Shown in pieces: positions 22,000 through 60,918 of a DNA stretch of 60,918 bases. The first letter of the stretch is position 1; every line of letters begins with the position of its first letter. Where the stretch lies: the IMG/VR virus record IMGVR_UViG_3300032242_001271, positions 1-60,918 of that record. The stretch is one strand, 5' to 3'. Source of the DNA: a virus. Its lineage: Duplodnaviria; Caudoviricetes. Both the position numbers and the translations under genes were made by a program. A model generated the notes under the pieces. The model was not told the origin of the DNA. It saw nothing but the letters and a program-made list of their open reading frames with translations, and made no database searches.

Positions 22000-22948
22000 T
22001 AGAGACATCTTCGCTATCAAAGACAAGGGTAATATTCTCAAGATCAGAAAGAATCTGTTCCATATCCTTATCTGAAAGAGCATTCACAAGCTTCTCAGCT
22101 CCATGATAACGCTCACCATCCCACTCAAACCATGCACCCTTCTTCACAATAAGGCCATGACGAACAGCGATATGGAAAGCCTCACGCTTTAAATCAATAT
22201 GAGCAGACTCAGGAGAAAACCAATAATCACCCTTCGTGCCCTGAATAGACTTCTGCTTAGACTTATCAATACGCCAAGTCACCTTACGACTCGTAATACG
22301 CTCATCAGTATCACGATCAACATCAGCAGAAGCATCACCGGCATTAAGGCGAATAATATTCGTAGCCCAATGAAAAGCAGCATTACCATACTTACCCTGC
22401 GTAACAAAATACTGACCCTTGGCAGCAATAGTCTGCTGAGCAATGAAGACAACACAATGATTTACACCAGAAATAAGTTCATCAGCAACCTTCTGAATCA
22501 AAACACCCTGAGAACGAGCATAAATGCCAATGCCACCCATACCATCATCATTCTTATAAAACTGCTCCATAACAATGGTATTGATCGAATCAAAAATAAA
22601 GAAATACTTAGAATCCTTCTCACGAAACATCGGCATGATCACATTCAAAATATCTTCAAGAATCGTAGAACGAATCACAATACGGTCCTCGATATCAATA
22701 CCACAATGCTCCATCCACTCATCAGTAGAAGAACCCTCAGCATCAATAATAACCGGCGTATAACCCATCTTCTGAGCCTCAGCAGCAGCATGAAAACACA
22801 TCGTAGACTTACCAGCCTGAGGATTACCCCAAACAATATGATAACGGCCAGACCACAAGCCACCACCAAGAATATAATTCAAACCAAAAGAAGGAGTTGG
22901 AATGATCTCCGGCTTCGGAATCTTTTCGCCACCTTTAACTACAAGCAT
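21992..22948 (-). CDS. recA: RecA/UvsX-like recombinase
   Basis: Walker A GNPQAGKS, IIDAEG, IFDSI, C-terminal KKGAWF; start MLVVKG with GGAAAGG RBS. Confidence 0.9.
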   Translation of the reverse strand: MLVVKGGEKIPKPEIIPTPSFGLNYILGGGLWSGRYHIVWGNPQAGKSTMCFHAAAEAQKMGYTPVIIDAEGSSTDEWMEHCGIDIEDRIVIRSTILEDILNVIMPMFREKDSKYFFIFDSINTIVMEQFYKNDDGMGGIGIYARSQGVLIQKVADELISGVNHCVVFIAQQTIAAKGQYFVTQGKYGNAAFHWATNIIRLNAGDASADVDRDTDERITSRKVTWRIDKSKQKSIQGTKGDYWFSPESAHIDLKREAFHIAVRHGLIVKKGAWFEWDGERYHGAEKLVNALSDKDMEQILSDLENITLVFDSEDVSND

Positions 22949-25900
22949 AAACTTTCCTTTCCTCATCAATATCTATCAAGTTCATCTTACACCATTTATC
23001 AGCAGAAATTACATTCGCAAGAGAATACTGCCCATTTCTGCCAGTAGAAACCTTCAACATCTTCCACTCAAAAACCTTATTCAGCTCAGCACGATGCGAC
23101 ATAACCGATGAACCAAAAATGGTCGTCTTAAGCCACCCATGATCAGGAACATAAAAATAAGACGAACACATATCCTTATCAGTACGAGTCTTAAAATGAA
23201 CCGTATTAACCAAATACGCCAACAAAGGACTCTTACCATTCGGAATAATCTCGCGCCTAATGCCCTTACCATACAGAAAATCAAACTCATCCATCGGCTC
23301 ACCAGAAATCTGATGCTGCAAAAACTTTGCAAACTTAGAATTAGACTTACCAGTCTCAATCTCATTAAAATCCTCAATATGATGAATCGTCTGATCACCA
23401 ACAATCGCAATCACATAATCACGCTTATTGATCACCGCATCAGAATCAGCAAACGAAGAAACCACACCAGTAGCATCCTCAATCTCAGCCCGGAAATACC
23501 GAGGAGTACGCTTCGTAGACTTCACAACACCACGAACAATATAAAGATTAATATCCTCCTTATTATCCTGAGCATCCGAACACGGCATAATAATACCATC
23601 AAACGGAGACTTATCATTCATCGTCACAGGATAATTCAACAACGGACCATAATAACGACGAGACTCATAAGGAGAATCAAACCCAATACTATCCAACGCC
23701 CCAACCTTCTGCAAAGCCTCCAAATTATTAACCTTCACCTTCGACTTCTGCACCGAATTAATGAAATGATCATAATCATGGAACGGACGCTTCAAAACAA
23801 TCTCATTAACAGTATTCGCACCACACCCAGCAATATTAGAAAGACCAAAACGCAACGCATCACCATCCAAAGAAAAACTATACTCAGACTTATTTACATC
23901 GGGACCGAGAATTTCGATACCAATACGTTGAGCCTCAAAGAGATAAGTCGTGATTTTCTCACCTTCTGTCTCATTCGACAAAGTAGCCCAAATGAACTCA
24001 GTAGGATAATTAACCTTCAACCACATAGTCTGATACGAAACAAGAGAATAAGCAGTCGCATGAGACTTATTGAACATATACAGAGACGCCTTTTCAATAT
24101 CAGACCAAAGGGCCTTTGCCTTATACTCTGAAATATATTGAGTTGCACCATCAACAAAGTCCTGTTGATACTTATCGAACTCAGCAGCATCCTTCTTCTT
24201 AGAAATAATCTTACGAAGACGATCAGCCTTAGCCCAAGAAAAACCAGCGAGCTCTACAGCAATCTTCATAACCTGCTCTTCAAAGATAAACGTACCATAA
24301 GTCTCCCCGAGAATATTCTCGAGAATCCTATGATCATAAGTTGTACGCTCAGTGCCATCACGACGAGCAAGATATTTCTTACCCTGAGTTACATATGATC
24401 CCGGACGTACCAAAGCGTTCGAAACGGCGAGATCATTGAAACTAGAAACACCCATCTCAGTAATGAGAGCAGCATACCCAGCCCCTTCCGCTTGGAAGAT
24501 GCCGACAACATTACCTGCTGTAAACTCGGCAAAGACTCTTGGATCTGGGTTGTCAATATCAAGGCTGTCTTTTGAAACATCAAGTCCCGTTCGTTCCTCA
24601 ATGGCATTGAGGCAGTCTTTGATAACTGTGATTGCACGAACCCCAAGAGCATCAAATTTAATAAGTCCAAATTCACCAGTCTCATCCTTATCGTAAGCTA
24701 TAACATTGATCTTCCGCTTAGTCCCAGCCTCTTCACGAACCTCAATAGGAACGATAGTGTTGAGCGGAACATTGGATACGACAACGCCAGCAGCGTGCGC
24801 TGAAGCGTTCTTGTATCGCCCTACAAGCCTCTCAGCGACCTTAATGATGTCAGGGTTCTTGTTTCTAAACTTAGCCAATTTATCTTTAGTTTTATACTCC
24901 TCGAAAGTCTCAAACAAAGGAGAAATAGCATTAGCCTCAGTATAAGGAACAGCAAAAGCGCTAGCAATAGCTTTGATAGACCCCTTAGGCTGAAAAGTGC
25001 CATAGGCAGAGATACCAGCAACATTCTCGCTACCCCAACGATTTCTCAGATATTCCTTCGCTTCATCACGCCTACGATCTTCGAAATCAAGATCGATATC
25101 CGGGAAGTCATTTCTCTCAGGATTGATAAACCGAAAAAAGAGAAGTCCATGCTTGACCGGATCGATATTCGTAATACCAAGAACATAAGACAATAAAGAT
25201 CCACCAGCGCTACCACGGGCAGGCCCACGGGCAATGCCGTCACTATCAGCCCAACTGATAAGATCCCAAAGGACCAAAAAGTAGTCAGAGAAATTCTTAC
25301 CAGCAATAACTGTAAGTTCTTCTTCAAGACGCTCAACGTAAACTGGATCATCAGAAAGTCCTTTCTGCTCCATAAGGAAGAAAGAAACATCACGAAGATA
25401 TTCATTAGAAGTCATATTGATCTTAATGTCCTTCGTGTATGAAGGAAGGAACATATTGTTCATTTTAATTTCAGTATTACACTTATCAGCGATTTCCATC
25501 GTATTCTCTAGAATATCAAGTCTAGTGATACCTGCATCACTGAAATGTTGTAATGCTTCATTCGCATCCATCATGTAAAGAGGAAGATCCTTGAATGAAA
25601 GTCTACGATCAGGATAAAGCATATCCATCTTATCAATAAGGTTATGCACGTTGCAAGCCTTATCATAATGATCTTTTGCATGACGCTTCTGGGCAGCATT
25701 CATAGAAGAACTCTGTCCAACAGCAAGAAGAACTTCCTCTACACCCCAATCTGCCGCTGTGGGGAAATGACAGTCAAGTGTGCCGACAATCGGAATGTTA
25801 TATGAATCACCATAGTCAATTAACTTGGCATTCAACTCAGGTGGATTATGAGGCTGAACCTCAAGGTAGTAGTCATCTTTAAAGATACCACGAAACTTAT

Positions 25901-26375
25901 TAAGTAATAATTCAGAACGCTTCTCGTCACCCTCAAGAATAGCCTTAGACAAGGCACTGCCCATACAACCGGAAAGGCAGATGAGGCCCTCGCCAAACTG
26001 TTCAAGATTAGAGAAGTCAATGCGAGGTTTATAGTAGAACTGCTCTGTCCAAGCGACATTATTCAATCTGAAAAGATTTTCAAGTCCCTTATCATTTTTT
26101 GCAAGGAGGATGAGATGAAAGCGTTCAGCCTTATTAGTTTCATCGTCAGTGCTTACATCATCGACAAAGTAAGCTTCAACTCCAAAGATAGGCTTAACAT
26201 TCTGATCACGACAAGCTTTTTGAAATCTGATGAAGCCTCCCATAGTCCCATGATCAGTAATAGCAGAGGCTATCTGACCATTGGTACTAGCAATATGAGC
26301 CATCTCCTCAGGCGTAGTTAAGCCATCAAGAAGTGAGTATTCACTATGATTGTGAAGATGCACCATCTCGGCCAT
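22935..26375 (-). CDS. dnaE: DNA polymerase III alpha subunit (DnaE-like)
   Basis: PHP domain HLHNHSEYSLLDG, RGSAGGS, PDIDLDF, FNKSHA. Confidence 0.95.
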   Translation of the reverse strand: MAEMVHLHNHSEYSLLDGLTTPEEMAHIASTNGQIASAITDHGTMGGFIRFQKACRDQNVKPIFGVEAYFVDDVSTDDETNKAERFHLILLAKNDKGLENLFRLNNVAWTEQFYYKPRIDFSNLEQFGEGLICLSGCMGSALSKAILEGDEKRSELLLNKFRGIFKDDYYLEVQPHNPPELNAKLIDYGDSYNIPIVGTLDCHFPTAADWGVEEVLLAVGQSSSMNAAQKRHAKDHYDKACNVHNLIDKMDMLYPDRRLSFKDLPLYMMDANEALQHFSDAGITRLDILENTMEIADKCNTEIKMNNMFLPSYTKDIKINMTSNEYLRDVSFFLMEQKGLSDDPVYVERLEEELTVIAGKNFSDYFLVLWDLISWADSDGIARGPARGSAGGSLLSYVLGITNIDPVKHGLLFFRFINPERNDFPDIDLDFEDRRRDEAKEYLRNRWGSENVAGISAYGTFQPKGSIKAIASAFAVPYTEANAISPLFETFEEYKTKDKLAKFRNKNPDIIKVAERLVGRYKNASAHAAGVVVSNVPLNTIVPIEVREEAGTKRKINVIAYDKDETGEFGLIKFDALGVRAITVIKDCLNAIEERTGLDVSKDSLDIDNPDPRVFAEFTAGNVVGIFQAEGAGYAALITEMGVSSFNDLAVSNALVRPGSYVTQGKKYLARRDGTERTTYDHRILENILGETYGTFIFEEQVMKIAVELAGFSWAKADRLRKIISKKKDAAEFDKYQQDFVDGATQYISEYKAKALWSDIEKASLYMFNKSHATAYSLVSYQTMWLKVNYPTEFIWATLSNETEGEKITTYLFEAQRIGIEILGPDVNKSEYSFSLDGDALRFGLSNIAGCGANTVNEIVLKRPFHDYDHFINSVQKSKVKVNNLEALQKVGALDSIGFDSPYESRRYYGPLLNYPVTMNDKSPFDGIIMPCSDAQDNKEDINLYIVRGVVKSTKRTPRYFRAEIEDATGVVSSFADSDAVINKRDYVIAIVGDQTIHHIEDFNEIETGKSNSKFAKFLQHQISGEPMDEFDFLYGKGIRREIIPNGKSPLLAYLVNTVHFKTRTDKDMCSSYFYVPDHGWLKTTIFGSSVMSHRAELNKVFEWKMLKVSTGRNGQYSLANVISADKWCKMNLIDIDEERKVYACS

Positions 26376-50154: not shown

Positions 50155-50177
50155 TATTTCTCCTATAAAATACTAAA

Positions 50178-50197
50178 GCCGGGGATTGCTCCCCGGC
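50178..50197 (-). terminator. Terminator after the major capsid gene
   Basis: gccgggga/tccccggc stem with GCAA loop, UUUA tail. Confidence 0.75.
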
Positions 50198-50229
50198 CAA
50201 AGTATATCACAAAATGAGAATCAAAATGC

Positions 50230-51273
50230 TCATGAACGAACTTTTACGTTCCTTACATGTACATAGGCAGCGGCATTTTCGATCTGATTGGCAACTCGGA
50301 TAAACTGAGTGTATTCAATCGTGTCCTTCTTAGGCTTGAACTCACGGTAAACCGTGATGTCACGCTGGATACCGATAATACGGTTCTGCGGGAACGTAAG
50401 TTCAACGATACCATGATTGCCTGAAGCAGCAGTATAAGTGCCAGTCTCAGTCTCAGGGTAAAGAGGAACCTCAAGAAGCGGAATACCGAACGGACGAATG
50501 CCACCAACATAGTTAGCATCACCACCGCCACCAGCGCCACCCATACCCTGATTGACGATAGCATCGCCCATCGAAGTACCGGCTGAAGCGCCATTACCAG
50601 AGCCAACGAGGTTACCGTTATTAGCGGTAGCATCGAGCGAAAGGCTCCAGATGTAATCCTGCAACAGCGAGCTAGACGTTGAGAACGCAAGCTGTGAACG
50701 ACGCTGAAGGTACTTGTTCGGCAGGGCACGAAGGGCCTTGTCGAACACTGAACGGGTAAGGTTGCCACCGGCTGCGTCAACAACAACGCCACTGGTACGA
50801 GCAAGAACCTTGAAACCATTCAGAGCCTTGAGAAGAAGATCTGCCGATGAAGTATCACCGTTAATGTACAGATCCTCAAGATCGTTAGCGGTCTGGCGAG
50901 CCATAAGCGAAGCTACATGGTCCTCCAGCGAATCACCTTCGATGTTGTCCTCAAGACCTTCAGTCGTAAGTTCCCAGTCAAGACGAAGCTTAACAGTCGT
51001 CATGGAAACCTTCGAGAAGGTAGGATCGGCATTAGATGTCGTGTCCGTACCTTCAGTAGCCTTACGCATGATGCGCTGGCCGATATCAACCTTGTCGATT
51101 TCGATGGTCGGGGCGTTCATACGAACGATACGAGCCGTCTTCATCAGGACTGATTGATCAAACAGGTAATCAATAAATCGATTGGCCTGTCGGGGCTTCA
51201 GAATACCGCCTGCACCGGCGCCAATCTGAGTTGTGTTAATAACCTTTTCTAAAAGATCTCTACTGCTCATCAT
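50230..51273 (-). CDS. Major capsid protein (HK97 fold)
   Basis: GGILKPRQANRFIDY...LEDNIEG...ANDLEDLYING; host-like GC-rich codons; GGAGG RBS. Confidence 0.92.
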   Translation of the reverse strand: MMSSRDLLEKVINTTQIGAGAGGILKPRQANRFIDYLFDQSVLMKTARIVRMNAPTIEIDKVDIGQRIMRKATEGTDTTSNADPTFSKVSMTTVKLRLDWELTTEGLEDNIEGDSLEDHVASLMARQTANDLEDLYINGDTSSADLLLKALNGFKVLARTSGVVVDAAGGNLTRSVFDKALRALPNKYLQRRSQLAFSTSSSLLQDYIWSLSLDATANNGNLVGSGNGASAGTSMGDAIVNQGMGGAGGGGDANYVGGIRPFGIPLLEVPLYPETETGTYTAASGNHGIVELTFPQNRIIGIQRDITVYREFKPKKDTIEYTQFIRVANQIENAAAYVHVRNVKVRS

Positions 51274-51284
51274 TCACCTCCAAA

Positions 51285-54200
51285 TTATGAATTATAACCT
51301 AAGACCTTAGCGATCTCAGCGGGGACAAAAATTCCGCCCCAAAAGCTTTCCGAATCAGCACTCTTTTCAAGAGCCTCTTCTTCTGCAACACCATCGACCT
51401 CTATGTCAGCCGACTTCTTTTCTGCGCCTGAGTTGGCGACCTTCTCGAGATCGCTTGAAAGCTCTTCAGCGGAATCCTTAACCTCAGAAACGGACTTTTC
51501 GATGGCATCGATCTTCCCGTCAACTTCAGCAGTGATATCAGCCTTGACCTTCTCAAGCTTCTCATCAAGAAGAGCGCTCAGACCTTCGAGTACCTTCTCA
51601 AAATCCATTTCATTTTCTCCTTCATTAATGGACTTGCCCATCATTGTGGGCTGCCCCTGATTTACTACCATGTCACTTCCATTGCCGGAGGCAACTTCTT
51701 CGAGGGCATCCTCACCCTGACCTGCGCCATTATGAGGACCACCATCTCCCTCTTCAACTGTAGAGGGAGTAGCGTTGATCATAGGCTGACTGGAAACATT
51801 TGCAATTGAATTATCAGCAGGGCTTGCATTAACTGCTGCAGCAACCTGCGGATCTCTAATTACATCACCAAAATCAGCGCCACCAACATTTACAACAACA
51901 TGAGGTGCTTGCGACATATTTCCATCGGAAACAATTCGAAGCATATGATTCATATTGTTAACATCAACAACCTGTCCCTTTTCAACAGTTTCCTTACCAA
52001 AAAGGAAATTGCCGAACTTTGACAGGATAGTTTGCTTTTGAGTATCAGTTAAATCTTCATGAGACATATCATTGATATTATCATAATTATTATTTGTTTG
52101 CAAATTCTTTGCAAAATTTGCATTTGAGTTTTTCGAAACCATATCCATCCCTTCATTTGAATCGGGCATTTCGTAAATATCATCAGATACTTTTAATTGC
52201 CATGCCCACTTTTGATGCTGATCAATTCGCTCAGCAATAAAATTGCAGACACCTTGCTGATTGGCAGCATTAGCAATTTGAAAAACATTATTCAAGCTAT
52301 CGATAACAGCATCATTATCTTCAGCAAGATCAGCAGCAAGAATTTCGGGATCAACATCCATTACCGGATCATCGTCAATAGTAGCCATAGCTAAAAATTC
52401 ACTAATTCCCCTTGGAGCAGTTCCACCCATCTTAAGAATATTTTCAGCAAGAGGATCAATGCTTTCGTAAACATCAGTATAAATAGCTTCAAAAAGAGCA
52501 TGATACTGAGCAAAATCGCTACCACGGACATTCCAATGATAGCCATGAGCGTGAGTGTACATGACAGCAACATCACCAACAGCCTTACGAAGTGCATCAA
52601 TCACCTGAGCCTGAGCGTAATCAGGAGAAGGCATAATCTTAATAAGATCGCCAGCATCAAATGCAGTCTTCAAGACAGCAGGAAGAGGGCGATCAGGACC
52701 ATTAACACGCTTCCAAGCAGAACGAATCTTTGCCTTTACACTAGCAAGATCAGCAGAAGGAATCTGAACCTTATTGCCTCTAAAACCGGCAGAAGTAAGA
52801 GCAGTTGTTGCTCTAGAAACCTGAGCAACAGTTTCCTTCGTAGTAGGAGAATCCCAAAGACGAAGCTTCCAAGTAGAAGGAGTATTAGGATCTGGAACAT
52901 AAGCAAAAGCTGCAGCAGGATACTGCTCCCCACCTTCCATCTTCATAGGAGCATCCTTCTTCATCTTCTTCCTTTGCGGAGGAAGACCCTGTTGAGGCTG
53001 AAGTAGACCACCACCAGCAAGAGCGGCAGTATCAACTGCTTTGCAGTAAGAGCAATCCATTCCTTCCATCAAAGTACCAGTAGAATCGCAATGACCACAA
53101 TCTTGATTATCGGAAATAGCTCCAGCACCTTCGCAATATGGGCAAGTCATATCTTTCATGACACTGCCAGAATCACCGCAAATTTTGCACATATAATCTG
53201 ACTTATTCATATTAATATCTTTCTTATTCAAATCACCAATCTTAGAAACAGTGGACATCTTGTGTCCAACATATGTTTCAGTTGCAGCCCAACCTTTAGC
53301 ATTTTTATGCCAAACTTGAATAAGTAATGCAGGATCTTCTTTAGTTCCAGTAATATTGAAACTAGAATTAGGAACCTCAATACTCCCATTTGCTGCAATT
53401 CTAACAACCTTGCCTCTGGCTTCTCCACCAGAAGAATTCCAAGAAACAAAATCACCGCGCTGAACTGCCGACTTATAAGTTTCCGATATCATTTCATCAG
53501 GACCATCGATATTCATACCGTGAACATCTGTCCCGACACCTTTTTCCATATTTTTCATACGATTAACAATAGCATCAGCCCAAGACTTACCGGGATCTCC
53601 ACCCCACAAAGCCCAAGCAATTCTTCCAGCAGAAGGATAACCTTCACCCTGAGAAAAACCTTTACCCTGCTTATCAACCTCATGACGAGCAAAAAAACTG
53701 TGCATTCTGCGAACAGTTGAGAGACTCAACTGTCTTTTGCCCATGATATCCCTAGCTCTAGCAACACCAACTGAGGTGCCACCGCGATTAAATTCTTTTC
53801 TCCAATCAAGGCCGCGCTTTGCTTCTGCAGCCATAGCGTCAGTAGGAGTAGTGTTAATATCAGAAAGAGCCTTCTGAAAAGAATCATTCAGAGTTTCAAT
53901 AAATTTATTTATTAAAATATCATCATAATCTTCAGATTTTCCGATAATAACCATTTCATCAAAACAAGTTGGGCAGACACTATCTGCGCCAACTGAAACA
54001 TAGCCATCATCTTCACAGTAAAAAACATCTTGCATTTGATCAGCAACATACTCAAGCTGACCATTAACACTCTTGATCATAGCGAACATCCCTGCAGGAT
54101 TGCAGGGATTGTCAACAACACTAAGTTCGCCAAGTGTATATTCTTGGATTTCACGAACCTTACGTCCATGACGCTCCATAAATACATTATCAGCCTTAGA

Positions 54201-54545
54201 GACGCTTCCACCAATAGAAAAACCACGGAGCGTACCATCTAAGATCTTCTGCCAAGTAGACTCAGCACCCTTAGAAATATAAACAGAAACTTCAATACCT
54301 TGATACATCTGACCATCGTAAGAAACTGGGACAGTTTTCCAATCAACCAGTTTTCCTACAGCAATAGGGGAATGCATCTCACGAATATTTCCCACCCAAC
54401 TAGAAAAAGCCTCAACTGAGGCATCAAAATTTACAACATCATCTACAAGATCCGGGTTATCAGCAGTAGCAATACCAGTGACAACTCTTTGTTCTTTATT
54501 GATCTTTTGAAATGGGAATGTAAAATTCAGGTCTGATGAGTGCAT
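51285..54545 (-). CDS. Prohead protease-scaffold polyprotein with inserted Dps, DnaJ-type Zn finger and other domains
   Basis: N-terminal HK97-type protease (IREMH, GFSIGG, ELSVVDNPCN); internal HWNVRG...D..AE Dps motif; 4x CxxC; C-terminal acidic coiled coil. Confidence 0.88.
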   Translation of the reverse strand: MHSSDLNFTFPFQKINKEQRVVTGIATADNPDLVDDVVNFDASVEAFSSWVGNIREMHSPIAVGKLVDWKTVPVSYDGQMYQGIEVSVYISKGAESTWQKILDGTLRGFSIGGSVSKADNVFMERHGRKVREIQEYTLGELSVVDNPCNPAGMFAMIKSVNGQLEYVADQMQDVFYCEDDGYVSVGADSVCPTCFDEMVIIGKSEDYDDILINKFIETLNDSFQKALSDINTTPTDAMAAEAKRGLDWRKEFNRGGTSVGVARARDIMGKRQLSLSTVRRMHSFFARHEVDKQGKGFSQGEGYPSAGRIAWALWGGDPGKSWADAIVNRMKNMEKGVGTDVHGMNIDGPDEMISETYKSAVQRGDFVSWNSSGGEARGKVVRIAANGSIEVPNSSFNITGTKEDPALLIQVWHKNAKGWAATETYVGHKMSTVSKIGDLNKKDINMNKSDYMCKICGDSGSVMKDMTCPYCEGAGAISDNQDCGHCDSTGTLMEGMDCSYCKAVDTAALAGGGLLQPQQGLPPQRKKMKKDAPMKMEGGEQYPAAAFAYVPDPNTPSTWKLRLWDSPTTKETVAQVSRATTALTSAGFRGNKVQIPSADLASVKAKIRSAWKRVNGPDRPLPAVLKTAFDAGDLIKIMPSPDYAQAQVIDALRKAVGDVAVMYTHAHGYHWNVRGSDFAQYHALFEAIYTDVYESIDPLAENILKMGGTAPRGISEFLAMATIDDDPVMDVDPEILAADLAEDNDAVIDSLNNVFQIANAANQQGVCNFIAERIDQHQKWAWQLKVSDDIYEMPDSNEGMDMVSKNSNANFAKNLQTNNNYDNINDMSHEDLTDTQKQTILSKFGNFLFGKETVEKGQVVDVNNMNHMLRIVSDGNMSQAPHVVVNVGGADFGDVIRDPQVAAAVNASPADNSIANVSSQPMINATPSTVEEGDGGPHNGAGQGEDALEEVASGNGSDMVVNQGQPTMMGKSINEGENEMDFEKVLEGLSALLDEKLEKVKADITAEVDGKIDAIEKSVSEVKDSAEELSSDLEKVANSGAEKKSADIEVDGVAEEEALEKSADSESFWGGIFVPAEIAKVLGYNS
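52075..52103 (-). promoter_or_regulatory. Internal promoter within the protease gene
   Basis: TTGCAA-17 nt-(TG-A)TAATAT, in-frame ATG 7 nt downstream at 52067. Confidence 0.6.
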
Positions 54546-54564
54546 CTAAGCCTCCAATCATATA

Positions 54565-54593
54565 ATCGTACACCAACTATTTCATAAAGTCAA
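54565..54593 (-). promoter_or_regulatory. Promoter of the head operon
   Basis: TTGACT-17 nt-TACGAT, followed by GGAGG RBS. Confidence 0.7.
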
Positions 54594-54605
54594 TTTATGC
54601 AAAAA

Positions 54606-55463
54606 TTAGATACCTACATCTTCAAGAGTAAATGTAGCTAAACGTCCATCTCCAGAAACTGGCTGACCAAAGTGGTACACATTACCAGTTCCACCGTTAC
54701 GTTTTATAGATATTTTACGAGTTACAGTAGAGGCATTAATGGTTTCATAATATACAAAACTATATGCAGTTGCTACCGTTGTTCCAGAGTTTAAAATATC
54801 AATAGCCTGTAAAACAGTGCCTCCAGAATCTCTTAAAGCTACTTGAATTACCGCGGAAGCTGTATCACCGTATACATGGCCAACTACTGTCCATTTATAT
54901 TTACGTCCACTAGTCACTGCTTGACTGTTAAATAATAAAGCTGTATCTACGAAAGTTGTTGTAGCAGCAGAAGATCCTGCATTTGAAGTAGTTTGGGCAA
55001 CAAAGCCGCGTGCATAAGTAGCCCATATCGGAGTACCTGTTCCAGCAGATTGTAAAACTTGTCCACTAGTACCCGCAGCTGTATAGGCATGTGCAGTACC
55101 AGTTCCGTAACCTACACCGCCTGAGGTTGCAGTGGCTGTAGAGTTAGTTCCACCATTGGCGATAGGTAAAGGAGTAGTAAGCCAAGTGGTGTCGTAGTTA
55201 GTTCCGCTATTTTTTACAAGAAACTGTCCTGTTGTTCCACCAGTCACAACTCCAGCACCCTGCGGACCAGTTGGGCCTTGAGGACCTTGAGAGCCCTGCG
55301 AGCCAGTTGATCCCTGAGTTCCTTGTGGACCAGTTAGGCCTTGAGGGCCTTGTGGTCCTTGAGATCCTTGAGCGCCAGTCGCTCCCTGAGGACCGGAGTT
55401 CCCCTGAGCACCAATCGCAACCTCTGTCCAAACTCCACCAACATATTGCTTTACAACTGTCAT
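54606..55463 (-). CDS. Collagen-like fibre protein
   Basis: About 18 Gly-X-Y triplets, LPIANGGT and GTSGQVL fibre motifs, beta-rich tip. Confidence 0.8.
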
Positions 55464-55485: not shown

Positions 55486-57531
55486 TCATGCGCTCAAATC
55501 TCCAACTGCAACCCAAGTATCAGTGCCACGCTTAATAAGCGTAACTGCAGACCACTGCGCCCTAGTTTTTAACCCCGGAGTTCCATTTATAGTTACGCCT
55601 GATATCGGGGTGATAGTTACTTGACCAGCACCAGATTGCAATATATTAATCTGTGTTCCTATGACATAAGCAACGCTACTATTCAATGGGACATTTAAAG
55701 TGAATGATGTTGCATAATTACATTCAATTAATTTTTGTTCATCACTAAGGATAAGTGTGTAGCTTGATCCCGTTTGAGCATTAGTAGATAATCTTCCCGG
55801 AGCGAAAAGAGTTCCTGTAGAACTAGTATCTGCCCATAGAACTGTTGTATCTACGGGAGCTGTCGCTGAGGTGATAATACCTTGAGCACCAGTTGGACCT
55901 TGAGGCCCTTGAGGACCCTGTGGTCCTTGAGGTCCTTGATAACCTTGAGGGCCTTGGGGACCTTGAGGTCCTTGATTACCTTGTGGACCCTGAGGGCCTT
56001 GCGGACCTTGACTGCCTTGAACGCCTTGAGGGCCTTGAGGGCCAAGGTCACCTGATCTAGCAGCACCAATAAGAACTGTCTCTCCGCTACTTGGATAAGA
56101 ACCGGAAAGAGCGACTACATCAAAAGCAGTCCAAGTAGAACTTGTAGAAGATCCAGTGACTTGAAAGGTACAATAAGTAGATGAAGATGAATCTTGACCT
56201 ATCATTGTTATAATATTTTTTATAAAATTAGTAGAGTCATCCCAAGTAGCCATATAATCTGTAATATCATTTGAATTATTGGCAGTATGACTAATATAAA
56301 ATTTAGTTATAGATGAAAATAAATTAACGCCACTGGATTTATTGAATCTTAAATATCCAGCTCCGGGATCAGCATTGGAAGTAGAAGTACTGAAATAAAA
56401 AGGAAATCCTGTACTCTTTGCTGCACCCTGAGCACCCTGAGCGCCTTGAGGACCTTGTGGGCCTTGATATCCCTGAGCACCTTGCAGACCTTGAGGTCCT
56501 TGATAGCCTTGCGGACCTTGTGGGCCTTGAATTGTAGACTGCGCACCTTGTGGACCTTGAGCACCCTGTGGGCCTTGAGGTCCTTGCGTACCTTGAGTAC
56601 CAGTGTCTCCAATAACAGCAAAATCCCAGCCAGAATAAGAACCAGATCCAGAAGTTTGATCTACAGTTATCTGAGCACTATAATTTGGATATCCAGAAGA
56701 AGAGAAGTTAGTCAATAACCCCTTCATCCAAATAGATGAAGTATTGGATAGTATCACACGCTGTCCCGCAACATAATTAAGAGGGCCAGTAGAAGATGTC
56801 ACTGTAACAGTTTTAGCTCCAGTAGAAATAGTTAAAGAACCAGAGACTGATCCACCATAACCAGACCCAGTAGATCCTTGAGGACCTTGTACTCCTTGAG
56901 GACCTTGACTGCCTTGGACACCTTGAGGGCCTTGACTTCCTTGAACGCCTTGAGGACCTTGCGGGCCTTGACTGCCTTGTGGGCCAGTCGGTCCTTGAGT
57001 TCCTTGAGGTCCTTGAATAGTAGACTGAGCACCTTGCGGACCTTGTGGTCCTTGATAGCCTTGCGGACCTTGAGGGCCTTGATTGCCCTGTGAGCCTTGA
57101 GCACCCTGCGGACCTTGTGGGCCTTGAGAACCTTGCGGGCCTTGAACAGAGGATTGAGCGCCCTGAGGACCTTGAGGGCCTTGAGGGCCTTGAGGGCCCT
57201 GAGAACCTTGAACACCGCTGGGAACAGTAAAGTTGAAAATAGCAGCAGTCGAAGTTCCGCTATTTGTCAAAACAGCAGAAGAGCCGGGAGATCCGGTAGT
57301 AGTAGTTCCAATAGTAACAGTCGCAGAGCCCAATCCAATAGGACCCTGAGGACCTTGAGGACCAATAATACCAGTAGAAGCCTCTGCAGCAATAGCTGAA
57401 GGACTAACAGTAATTCCCTGTAAGCCACGATTAACAGTAACATTAGGGCCAGCAGCAGTAGGAGTAACACTAACTGTAGTATCAATACCACTTACAGTGA
57501 TTTCGTTAGTGGTTTGATTAATTTCAGTCAT
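55486..57531 (-). CDS. Collagen-like fibre protein
   Basis: Several (GPQ)n blocks separated by beta domains; ends [10 protein letters not shown]. Confidence 0.85.
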
Positions 57532-58033: not shown

Positions 58034-58585
58034 CTAAAATCTCTTCAAGTTTGGATCAATCGTAGATGCAGCAATGATTGGATCAATCGGCCACCCCGAC
58101 GACGCGAGATCAGCAAAGACCGTCTCAGGGGTGAAAACCAGATTATCAAAAGAGACTGTTGTTATCTCAATATTTGGGTCACTAGCAGCAAGGGCCAAGC
58201 CGACTTCATATTCGGAGATTTGTTTCTCTGGGAATGGAGTTCCAAATGACTTTTCCCACGAAAGAATCATTTCTTGAGTGTTTCTTCTGGTGACAATCAT
58301 TTTGCATGGTGGCATTGATTCTGTTGTTAGGAGATTTGCAACAGTCGCTTTTGTTACCCCATTTTCAGGGACAAGAGGTAACCATTCAGAGAATGGACGG
58401 AGGGGAAAGTTTGGAGGGTAATAGCCATTGGGGTTGGGATCATGTGTTTCGTCAACCTCTTTGCTTCTGATTATTTGCTCTGCCTCAAGGCTGTAATAGC
58501 CCACAAGGGTGTCTGATGCAGTTAAGCAGGCGTGCATGAGGCTGCTTGTTCCTGTTCGATACATTCCAGCTATTATGTAAATCAT
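58034..58585 (-). CDS. Sulfotransferase-like P-loop protein
   Basis: IIAGMYRTGTSSLM (PAPS-binding loop), RRN...SW, VSFDNLVFTP. Confidence 0.65.
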   Translation of the reverse strand: MIYIIAGMYRTGTSSLMHACLTASDTLVGYYSLEAEQIIRSKEVDETHDPNPNGYYPPNFPLRPFSEWLPLVPENGVTKATVANLLTTESMPPCKMIVTRRNTQEMILSWEKSFGTPFPEKQISEYEVGLALAASDPNIEITTVSFDNLVFTPETVFADLASSGWPIDPIIAASTIDPNLKRF

Positions 58586-60159
58586 TTAATAATCACCGAA
58601 GTAGCCCATCCTGTTCCAAAGTTAGATCCAGTCGTTGTTCTGGTTCCCGTAGCATTTTGGTTTGCTAGAGATATGTAGCCGGAGCGATGACGCTCATTGC
58701 TAAATGATGTAGCAAAGTTTGGATCAAAGAAATCGGCGTGCAACTCTGGATAGGGCGTACCAGAAGCAGCGGTGTAGAAACCACCGATCCACAAACTTCC
58801 ATTGCCCGTTGGGGTTATTGTTGGCACGTTTATGGTACTTGCAGCAGTTGCTGTTGCTGTTTGAATACTGTCGTAAGCCGTGGCATTTGCGACAGAGTAA
58901 ATGATTGCACTTGTATAAGTCGTGGTTGTAAATGAGAAGGTATAAGTTGACCCTTCTGATGCGGCGGTTCTTGTGTAGACATGATATTTCCTATTGCCAT
59001 TACTTAGTGAAGCCCTATTAGTCCATCCGCTTGGCGGAGTAATAGTGCCGGTTCCGTTGGTTGCAAAGAACATGACCATGATGTCACCATCTACAGTTCC
59101 TGAAGGTTTATTGATTGTTATACTGGTTCCACCAGTAACGCGAGAATCTGCATATGATCTGACATAAGCGCCGGGAGAAACATCAACCGCAGTTGAAGCA
59201 GTTCCATTACCAGCGCCATTGACTCCTCGTAACTGCAAAGAGTAAACCTGTCGATTAGTTAGTCCAGTAATCCCAAAGCGAGCGTCAAGCCAACTGTAGC
59301 CATAACTTGAATACATAGCAGGCGTAATAGATGTCCATGCTCCACTGTCAAGTTTGTATTGATACTCCACCAAATCACCGCCATTAGTTGATCCGGCTGT
59401 AAATGATGGCAAAACAATACCTGATGTGAAATGAGCGTGCTTGACGGATGTGGGCGCATCAGGAACGGTAGCGACAGTGTTGTTAATTGCCATTGCAGCA
59501 ACCAATCCCGATTCAGCAGAACTCAAGGTTCCTGTTTTCGTGTAACTGGCTGCACCGCTAGCCACTTGGAAACCTGCATAGACATTTCGAGCGCCCGTTT
59601 CTCGGTGCATTTCTGTCATCCCGCTTGGAGCCGTAAGCGTGGTTGTGGCGCTATTTCCATCCGACATGAAATAAAGGATCGCATCAGCATTACCTGCGGC
59701 GGCAACAGCAGTTGATGTTGCAGATGTTGTTAAAACGAAAACCGCTGTAGAGGAAGCGTCGTGTTTGTAGGCACTTCTCAATACAAAAACACCAGCGGTC
59801 CAAGAATCAGCGTAAGAAAGACCCGATGGGGAGGTATAAGTGGATTCCGATGCCGAGGCCACTCTGGTACACAGGCGCATGATGGTAGTGGTTGATCCTT
59901 CGCCTATGGCACTGCCGTTAACTTGCTGCCGAACCCATCCATCAGGTACAGCCGTGGGATAGTTGCCCGACTTGTAATCAATCGTGTAACGCTCAAATAG
60001 AACTAAATAATCTCCCGCCAAAATGGGATTAGAAAAAGATGCCTGAGTAATACTCCAAGGTGAATCCGAAGTACCCGTAGTAACTGACTTACTTGCAAAA
60101 GTAATACCAGAAGCAACTTCAAGGAAACCCGAAGCCACGATGCCTAAAATGCTAGGCAC
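58582..60159 (-). CDS. Fibre-associated receptor-binding protein with Fn3-like domain
   Basis: [12 protein letters not shown]-terminus; PDAPT...YQY...[16 protein letters not shown] Fn3; two related flanking beta domains. Confidence 0.7.
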
Positions 60160-60918
60160 TTAAATCACCTACAAGGATATAATTATTTGTGGAAGTGCAA
60201 ATAAGTGTTGCAGCAGAATACTGTGCTCTAAACTTCTTTCCCGGCGTTGCGTTTGTTGTTGCCGTTCCGGCCACAGTTACTTGACCTGATCCTGTTTGGA
60301 CCATATCGATTCTCTGACCAGCAGAAAGACCGATGCCGGTGTTTACATTGAGAGTCATTGCAGTAGAGCTATTATTGAGAAGAAGAATCTTTCCGTTATC
60401 CCCGGAAACTACAGCGTAAGCATTAGCCGTGATTGTAGGAGTAGAAACTGTTTGAGCAGTTGTCCAATCTCCAGCAGCACCCTGTGGTCCCTGCGGACCT
60501 TGAGAGCCTTGAGAGCCAGTCGTGCCTTGCGGGCCTTGAGAGCCTTGCGAGCCAGCAGCACCTTGCGAACCAGTTGGGCCTTGAGGACCTTGCGTGCCTT
60601 GAGAGCCAGTTGGGCCTTGTGGGCCTTGAGAACCTTGCGAACCAGTTGGGCCTTGAGGACCTTGCGTGCCTTGAGAGCCAGTTGGGCCTTGTGGGCCTTG
60701 AGAACCTTGCGAACCAGTCGGGCCTTGAGGACCTTGCGTGCCTTGAGAGCCAGTTGGGCCTTGAGAACCTTGAGGGCCAATCGGGCCTTGAGGACCTTGC
60801 GTGCCTTGAGAACCAGTTGGGCCTTGTGGGCCTTGAGAACCTTGCGAACCAGTCGGGCCTTGAGAGCCTTGCGAGCCAGCAGCACCTTGCGAACCAGTTG
60901 GGCCTTGAGGACCTTGCG
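60152..60918 (-). CDS. Collagen-like fibre protein, 5'-truncated by the window edge
   Basis: The frame of track ORF 60152-60358 stays open upstream as Gly-X-Y repeats to the window end; ends YILVGDLSA. Confidence 0.8.
60480..60918. repeat. 9-bp (Gly-X-Y) tandem repeats with 72-bp higher-order unit
   Basis: gagagccagttgggccttg recurs at 60601, 60673 and 60745. Confidence 0.85.

Follow-up and report, generated by a model that had tools for sequence, protein, structure and literature searches.

A Dps (mini-ferritin) domain in an apparently nested prohead protease-scaffold gene of uncultivated tailed phages: a candidate capsid cargo

Most of what is known about capsid-internal proteins comes from a small number of model phages, in which they serve as anti-restriction or host-takeover factors. 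Here we describe a candidate addition to them, a Dps (mini-ferritin) domain encoded within the prohead protease-scaffold gene of an uncultivated phage, on IMG/VR record IMGVR_UViG_3300032242_001271. The window analysed is the whole viral record, a metagenomic contig of 60,918 bases with an estimated completeness of 59%. In lambda and P2 the protease and the scaffold are encoded by one gene, as stated in the relevant portion of PMC8508860. Specifically, lambda gpC/Nu3, P2 gpO and Mu gpI/Z share with the present locus an N-terminal protease, a C-terminal scaffold with in-frame internal start signals and a position just upstream of the capsid gene. In comparison with lambda gpC/Nu3, however, about 580 extra residues are inserted here (a domain termed X1, a Tudor-like domain, a zinc finger, a domain termed X2 and Dps); moreover, the protease is S78-like and not of the lambda gpC kind, and the internal starts are known here as signals only.

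The delivery of non-structural proteins into the head is described for T4, whose internal proteins enter proheads by means of a targeting sequence that is removed by the head protease (passages of PMC7697877 and PMC3012670). In T4 an assembly tag brings these proteins and Alt into the prohead, where the maturation protease releases them and they stay with the DNA, a principle resembling the one considered here. However, the T4 tag is an N-terminal peptide of about 10 amino acids, whereas here it would be a whole scaffold domain on the protease chain, and the portions of the two T4 papers that were consulted describe no ferritin-like internal protein. In addition, the long multidomain head proteins named polyvalent proteins (Iyer et al. 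2017, PMC5512222) likewise mix unrelated activities, and fusions of the present Dps clade share this make-up; the ADP-ribosyltransferase, kinase and phosphatase domains co-fused in sister proteins of the one described here belong, going by passages of that paper, to a class believed to enter the host along with the DNA. The anchor here is a prohead protease-scaffold and not MuF or portal. The words 'Dps' and 'ferritin' occur 0 times in the main text of the paper, and the domain tables in its supplements might list such a fusion.

A further likeness is offered by engineered P22 virus-like particles, in which a cargo placed N-terminal of the scaffold domain is enclosed during assembly (PMC9962691, in part). 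These particles are man-made, and the gene described here would be their natural counterpart; scaffold-fusion cargo loading, so far an engineering trick, would then have a natural case. Dps genes of phages are, for their part, already known: stand-alone members of the same superfamily are known from Lactobacillus plantarum myophages, Clostridium tetani phages and 'Gratiaviridae', and such genes are in print and read as helpers of host stress tolerance (sections of PMC8008677). Unlike the domain under study, they are unfused, lie outside the protease gene and are only 23-30% identical to it. Finally, a ferritin-like protein has been detected in phage G particles, as mentioned in a part of PMC12484599.

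An earlier, sequence-only reading of this DNA had drawn a parallel with encapsulin cargo loading, and the parallel holds at the functional level only. Encapsulins hold a protein of the ferritin superfamily inside an HK97-fold shell by means of a C-terminal tag; what characterizes them is a non-viral shell free of tail genes and a short loading peptide at the C-terminus of the cargo. The present locus has neither feature: it belongs to a tailed phage with tail genes, the domain is a Dps and not an encapsulin ferritin-like cargo, the tag would be a scaffold domain of about 107 amino acids and about 97 kb of DNA has to fit into the shell as well. We group the locus with capsid-targeted cargo and polyvalent head proteins, on a lambda C/Nu3-type gene, and not with encapsulin systems, although a functional link of phage capsids to ferritin-loaded encapsulins would follow if the cargo role were confirmed. 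In a full-text literature search of main texts, no description of Dps or ferritin fused to a prohead protease or to MuF was found.

The Dps domain within the head polyprotein

The head polyprotein gene (protease, variable cargo block, scaffold) occupies positions 51285-54545 on the minus strand as a single open frame of 1086 codons, with GGAGG 5 nucleotides 5' of its ATG and no stops within the Dps match. The Dps domain spans amino acids 649-785 (52191-52601, minus strand). It is recognized by Pfam Ferritin PF00210 (E=3.8e-17, 63 bits against a cut-off of 24.5) and, over the same residues, by phrog_3636, while a genome-wide profile scan returns the Ferritin match at 52191-52601 with 67.3 bits. 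Moreover, a PDB sequence search (E<=1e-3) gave 52 matches, every one of them a Dps-type protein or a Dps-like ferritin, with 8ff9 at the top (1.5e-18). The sequence-only reading had announced an intact Dps domain at 52184-52615, in frame between protease and scaffold, and the analysis bears this out: the interval encloses the profile match, the quoted peptide corresponds to amino acids 652-784, and one open reading frame (ORF) of 1086 amino acids carries phrog_9427 at its N-terminal side and a coiled-coil region at its C-terminal side.

The ferroxidase ligands, which had likewise been claimed to be intact, are found in the DNA itself, with codons at 52536-52538 (H670), 52500-52502 (H682), 52488-52490 (E686, at a fifth ferroxidase position), 52455-52457 (D697) and 52443-52445 (E701); a tryptophan, W671, accompanies them. 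In particular, the canonical spacing of His, His (+12), Asp (+15 from the second His) and Glu (+19) is matched by H670/H682/D697/E701. In the structural matches, residues 17-99 of the query correspond to 13-93 of Listeria Dps (1qgh) and residues 32-83 to 48-98 of E. coli Dps (1dps). H670, H682, E686, D697 and E701 thereby fall on positions 31/43/47/58/62 in Listeria and 51/63/67/78/82 in E. coli Dps, which we take to be the numbers of their ferroxidase ligands. The conservation extends to the relatives: in a collection of 93 fused Dps domains H670, W671, H682 and D697 are present in 93 and E701 in 92. The segment is also under purifying selection. Its ratio of nonsynonymous to synonymous substitution rates (dN/dS), estimated against three loci, is 0.069 versus the close locus L004 and 0.059 versus the close locus L002, the lowest among eight segments in each pair, and 0.20 versus the distant L010, where it is not the lowest.

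That the fusion is not an assembly artefact follows from a second assembly without differences, from a bridging contig of a relative and from 15 homologues. Specifically, a Logan contig of 57,070 bases from run X1, produced by another assembler, covers 51200-54700 with 0 differences, and it is independent in method only, run X1 being the probable source sample. A relative's contig in run X3 bridges 52535-53694, including the N-terminal Dps junction, two identical 151-base contigs come from a run of another study, and the same domain order is observed in 15 full-length homologues from other assemblies. Neither a stop nor a misassembly separating the domains, either of which would have undone the earlier claim, was found in this comparison.

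A probable nested gene with an optional slot

The N-terminal module, amino acids 1-215 (53901-54545, minus strand), is a prohead (capsid maturation) protease, matched by phrog_9427 over amino acids 4-212 (E=1.2e-63) and 44-45% identical to annotated capsid maturation proteases of Streptomyces phages (tblastn E=4e-40); H58 and S110, its candidate catalytic His and Ser, are invariant across 15 homologues. At the opposite end of the protein, M980 is the sole in-frame internal ATG/GTG/TTG with a strong Shine-Dalgarno sequence in the 1086 codons, AAGGAG at 51617-51622 (minus strand) lying 8 nucleotides 5' of its ATG (51606-51608). This start was compared in 19 of 35 related loci, after removal of near-duplicates, cut genes and three distant loci. 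In 18 of the 19 an ATG or GTG preceded by AAGGAG, AGGAGG or GGAGG is located 100-116 codons before the stop, and the conserved start spans three sublineages with protease identities of 77-88%, 50-54% and 45-47%. Since four of the 19 relatives use GTG in place of ATG, it is the start signal, and not the methionine, that is conserved. A second conserved start is located 203-278 codons before the stop, directly after the protease in some minimal forms or after the cargo block in long forms; in the window it is M802, with a weaker AAGGGA, and in some relatives it has a strong GGAGG.

In its start signals the gene resembles the classical arrangement of lambda C/Nu3 and P2 gpO, and it looks like a protease-scaffold gene of that nested type. 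Its last two segments were delimited in an alignment of the homologues (A1). Amino acids 802-979 (51609-52142, minus strand) form a low-complexity conserved region that begins at the invariant M802 (MVSKN) and could supply the N-terminal portion of a nested scaffold product of greater length. Amino acids 980-1086 (51288-51608, minus strand) are helical or coiled-coil and acidic, give weak matches to coiled-coil families at 982-1058 and end in a tail ESFWGG..VP.E..K.LGY; they are the candidate nested scaffold protein and capsid-targeting end. A layout of this kind predicts abundant free scaffold and fewer full-length chains, which the common C-terminus would anchor in the core. Consequently, Dps would enter at the copy number of the protease and not at that of the bulk scaffold.

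The 35 related viral loci were found with the protease domain alone as query, and the set is for this reason unbiased with regard to Dps. It comprises 20 complete genes without Dps, 7 with it (5 full, 2 with the C-terminal half only), 5 genes cut by contig ends and 3 that are too distant; minimal protease-scaffold forms of 457-497 amino acids are among the Dps-less genes. A capsid homologue lies directly downstream in 26 of the 35, and the other loci are either truncated by a contig end or too distant. In an alignment of six loci, Dps is cleanly absent from L003 and L009. At L013:5959-8634, on a 96.7-kb contig, the Dps core is deleted, and what is left of the block is its first approximately 26 residues and its C-terminal flank; L014:4798-6504 and L015 retain only the C-terminal half of Dps, without the ligand helices; judging from their alignment, L013 and L014 are natural Dps deletion derivatives. 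In a larger protein collection, of which the best 120 of 210 long protease relatives were scanned, Dps is present in 29 of the 120, being the last recognized module in all 29 and directly preceding the scaffold in 28. The commonest Dps-less forms in the same scan are protease-X1-Tudor-X2-scaffold (41) and protease-scaffold (25). In other words, the space between the two end modules is variable, filled with optional globular domains, and behaves like a slot for exchangeable cargo.

The same type of fusion recurs well beyond the close relatives. A Dps query among proteins of 597-1901 amino acids gave 90 hits among 531 candidates. The sequence-only reading had asked how common fusions of Ferritin with a head peptidase are, and 81 of these 90 long proteins carry a prohead protease domain and 61 carry X1, as called with small hidden Markov models built for the analysis. 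In a HMMER search against 1.84 billion cluster representatives, 4306 hits passed E<=1e-3, and 106 of them passed E<=1e-30. Among the best 150 Dps clusters, 95 are of at least 300 amino acids and 45 of at most 230; prohead proteases of three types are present in 45 of the 150, N-terminal of Dps in 26 and C-terminal in 19, and another 16 carry some other head-polyprotein module. Ten examples were examined with Pfam, and the architectures include S78 with two tandem Ferritin domains, AAA_33-Ferritin-S78, HAD-Ferritin-S78, MuF-Ferritin, ADP-ribosyltransferase-Ferritin, Ferritin-Zeta toxin, Ferritin-WGR and DUF6321-Ferritin.

The order at locus L051 is large terminase (TerL), portal, X1-Dps-S78 protease and major head protein, which is a different head module with the same theme. 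In a rough FastTree of 232 Dps domains the architecture label has to change 59 times; counted on well-supported branches only, the three protease types require minima of 2, 4 and 5 changes. The Dps domain has thus moved between head polyproteins repeatedly, the tree being indicative only because the alignment has just 145 columns. As further observations on this clade, two tandem Dps domains occur in some head polyproteins (P0009, amino acids 416-552 and 576-710, and P0010), and a viral contig carries, at L045:1383-7648, separate neighbouring ORFs with ADP-ribosyltransferase-like, X1, Zeta-kinase and Dps modules, which looks like an unfused version of the polyprotein toolkit.

Proposed loading route and competing explanations

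We favour, with moderate confidence, a model in which the nested protease-scaffold gene carries Dps as capsid cargo, the domain being most likely an active mini-ferritin, since all four canonical ferroxidase ligands are kept. According to this model, a block of optional globular domains would have been inserted between the protease and the scaffold of a lambda C/Nu3- or P2 gpO-like gene. The bulk of the scaffold would be translated from in-frame internal starts, probably M980 and maybe M802. The full-length chain of 118 kDa would co-assemble inside the procapsid, because its C-terminus is common with the scaffold, and would bring with it the protease and the inserted domains. Following assembly, the protease would cut the polyprotein, leaving a free, acidic Dps domain of about 16 kDa within the shell. 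The freed domain could form dimers, which build the inter-subunit iron site, and perhaps 12-mers, and might then oxidize and sequester Fe(II) with H2O2 or O2, either within the virion or, once ejected, in the newly infected cell, or in both. An action in the newly infected cell appears as plausible as protection of the resting virion, as the co-fused sister domains are of the injected kind.

Dps would therefore be, most likely, an accessory cargo carried into the procapsid, and these uncultivated phages probably load a mini-ferritin into their heads. The earlier proposal that the scaffold end acts as the carrier is consistent with the comparative data, because the gap between protease and scaffold is a swappable slot and the Dps clade is fused to three protease types and to MuF. 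If the model is correct, an iron/peroxide enzyme tethered to the capsid maturation machinery would represent a new class of virion content, encoded by a fusion that recurs in dozens of protein clusters with three prohead protease types. Moreover, it would raise the questions of the enzymatic protection of packaged DNA in environmental phages and of stored iron in virus particles.

A number of points weigh against this model. Scaffold-derived pieces often leave capsids, and a helical bundle of 16 kDa might escape before DNA packaging. At 686, the fifth ferroxidase position, 59 of the 93 fused domains have Gly and 16 have Glu. The scores for the NCBIfam Dps equivalogs stay far below their cut-offs (NF041388, 50 versus 170 bits; NF006975, 41 versus 114), and the domain is, by its similarity scores, a divergent, phage-borne branch of Dps. 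As regards the protease, its Pfam Peptidase_S78 match has 19 bits, under the cut-off of 21, and amino acids 1-215 have no significant PDB sequence match, so that the catalytic residues are only candidates. The linkers of alignment A1 contain no defensible shared motif that could mark cleavage sites. The sequences in the start-codon and dN/dS comparisons are few and related to each other. In addition, stand-alone genes of the same Dps clade occur in the phage contigs L043, L044, L046, L047 and L049, and tethering is therefore not required for function. Among 50,697 phage records the Dps domain is matched by 21, all unfused and 23-30% identical, and the fused form is found in no record of a cultured phage; no RNA run is listed as holding the stretch.

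A more far-reaching proposal is that the virions of widespread, apparently freshwater uncultivated phages hold working Dps cages, which guard the genome from H2O2 and Fe(II) and then eject antioxidant or iron into the host. We regard this as doubtful, although not far-fetched. If true, the Dps cages would be the natural viral counterpart of ferritin-loaded encapsulins, guarding genomes in sunlit water, and phage particles in aquatic systems would act both as a vector and as a reservoir of protein-bound iron, an internal 'Ferrojan horse'.

One alternative to the cargo model is that the fusion simply secures late and strong co-expression of a cytoplasmic helper, in which case Dps, either freed in the infected cell or working within polyprotein that has not assembled, would protect the replicating DNA or the host against oxidative stress and would not be a capsid content. 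Stand-alone Dps genes of gut phages are interpreted as stress helpers in the relevant sections of PMC8008677. Stand-alone members of the same clade also occur in viral contigs, and the L046 copy lies unfused beside a large terminase gene. However, the partner chosen by the fusion is a prohead protease in 81 of the 90 long forms, Dps always stands between the protease and the capsid-binding end, and the co-fused domains are typical of injected head proteins. Prohead proteases, moreover, act inside procapsids. On balance, a cytoplasmic destination is unlikely.

A second alternative sees Dps mainly as an assembly hub: in oligomeric form (12-mer or dimer) it would gather the protease and scaffold arms, thereby nucleating the procapsid or setting its size, and its iron chemistry would be incidental. 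Dps dodecamers are very stable and have both termini outside, a geometry that would suit a tethered hub, as would the fact that the scaffold directly follows Dps in 28 of the 29 relatives with the domain. This role is nevertheless improbable: close relatives assemble without Dps (20 of 27 complete genes), the core is deleted in L013, in some fusions the protease comes after Dps and a scaffold is not recognizable, and the metal ligands, invariant in 92-93 of the 93 domains, would be needless for a function in oligomerization only.

Condensation of the packaged genome, or shielding of the entering DNA from nucleases, in the manner of E. coli Dps with the chromosome, is a very improbable role. 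The label of PHROG 3636 is 'DNA binding protein', and the basic X1, Tudor-like and X2 neighbours could provide DNA contacts if they were left uncleaved. However, 5 of 15 close homologues have Dps but lack X2, and the Dps domain itself (15.8 kDa) has an isoelectric point (pI) of 4.34. All 93 fused Dps domains are acidic (pI 4.05-5.13, 0 of 93 above pI 7), and no Lys-rich or basic tail flanks the domain here or is present in any of the 93. DNA binding is not known for Dps proteins that lack such a tail. Since the 93 domains are uniformly acidic and tail-less, direct contact with DNA is an unlikely function. Finally, a chimeric assembly or a read-through of two genes, to which the metagenomic origin and incompleteness of the record might point, has virtually no chance of being the explanation, in view of the identical second assembly, the lack of stops, the same architecture in 15 homologues and many other assemblies, a G+C content of the Dps segment (0.397) near that of the window (0.380) and the strong purifying selection.

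Other modules and genomic context

Between the protease and Dps, the polyprotein contains four further modules. X1 (amino acids 225-340; 53526-53873, minus strand) is a phage-specific domain of unknown function with a pI of 10.2, matched by phrog_2859 at 227-335; besides its association with Dps in long fusions, it is also observed beside ADP-ribosyltransferase, HAD and Zeta-kinase domains. It is followed by a Hva1_TUDOR-like domain (amino acids 355-445; 53211-53483, minus strand; PF11160 at 364-410, E=7.7e-7), which is a whole-domain indel among the homologues. Next comes a Cys-rich, DnaJ-like zinc-finger segment with four CxxC motifs (amino acids 448-505; 53031-53204, minus strand; DnaJ_CXXCXGXG E=8.6e-5, below cut-off), the Cys columns of which are at least 90% conserved. 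Within this capsid protease-scaffold protein the zinc-finger segment behaves as a unit, close homologues having either the whole domain or none of it. X2 (amino acids 525-632; 52650-52973, minus strand; phrog_19463 at 529-629) is again basic (pI 10.2) and of unknown function, so that X1, the Tudor-like domain and X2 all have a pI of 9.4-10.2. As to the identity of X1 and X2, an Atlas search returned viral hypothetical clusters only, plus a weak DUF6582 lead for X2 at 0.82, and Pfam gave nothing usable for either at E<=1. The variable slot is also a place in which to seek further virion cargo, X1 and X2 being candidates.

The major capsid protein gene (347 amino acids; 50230-51273, minus strand; phrog_1623 E=9e-85, with a weak match to phrog_10 major head protein) adjoins the protease-scaffold gene on its downstream side and is followed by a head-tail adaptor-like gene. 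Elsewhere the record encodes a tape-measure protein, a large fibre-like protein, a DnaE-type polymerase, a DnaB helicase and a primase; the tape-measure, tail-fibre-like and adaptor genes identify the virus as a tailed phage. The polymerase gene (22935-26375, minus strand) encodes a full DnaE-type DNA polymerase III alpha subunit with PHP, NTPase, finger and HhH domains, and is adjoined by the genes for the DnaB-like helicase and the DnaG-like primase. No tRNAs were found in the window, and 185,579 species genomes yielded only 5 loci, all on contigs of metagenome-assembled genomes, so that no host is assigned. A consensus scan for internal promoters, with 16 sites against 11.8 +/- 3.4 expected, is not informative.

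Directly upstream of the protease gene there are three genes for collagen-like (G-x-y repeat) fibre proteins (54606-55463, 55486-57531 and 60152-60916, minus strand). The collagen-like genes stand between the protease gene and two ORFs without family match, one of which, of 525 amino acids at 58582-60159, might encode the portal. Downstream of the capsid gene, after an ORF of 106 amino acids, a strong terminator-like hairpin of 9 pairs, 7 of them G-C, with a T-rich tail is located at 50177-50198 (minus strand), and may mark the end of the protease-scaffold/capsid transcription unit.

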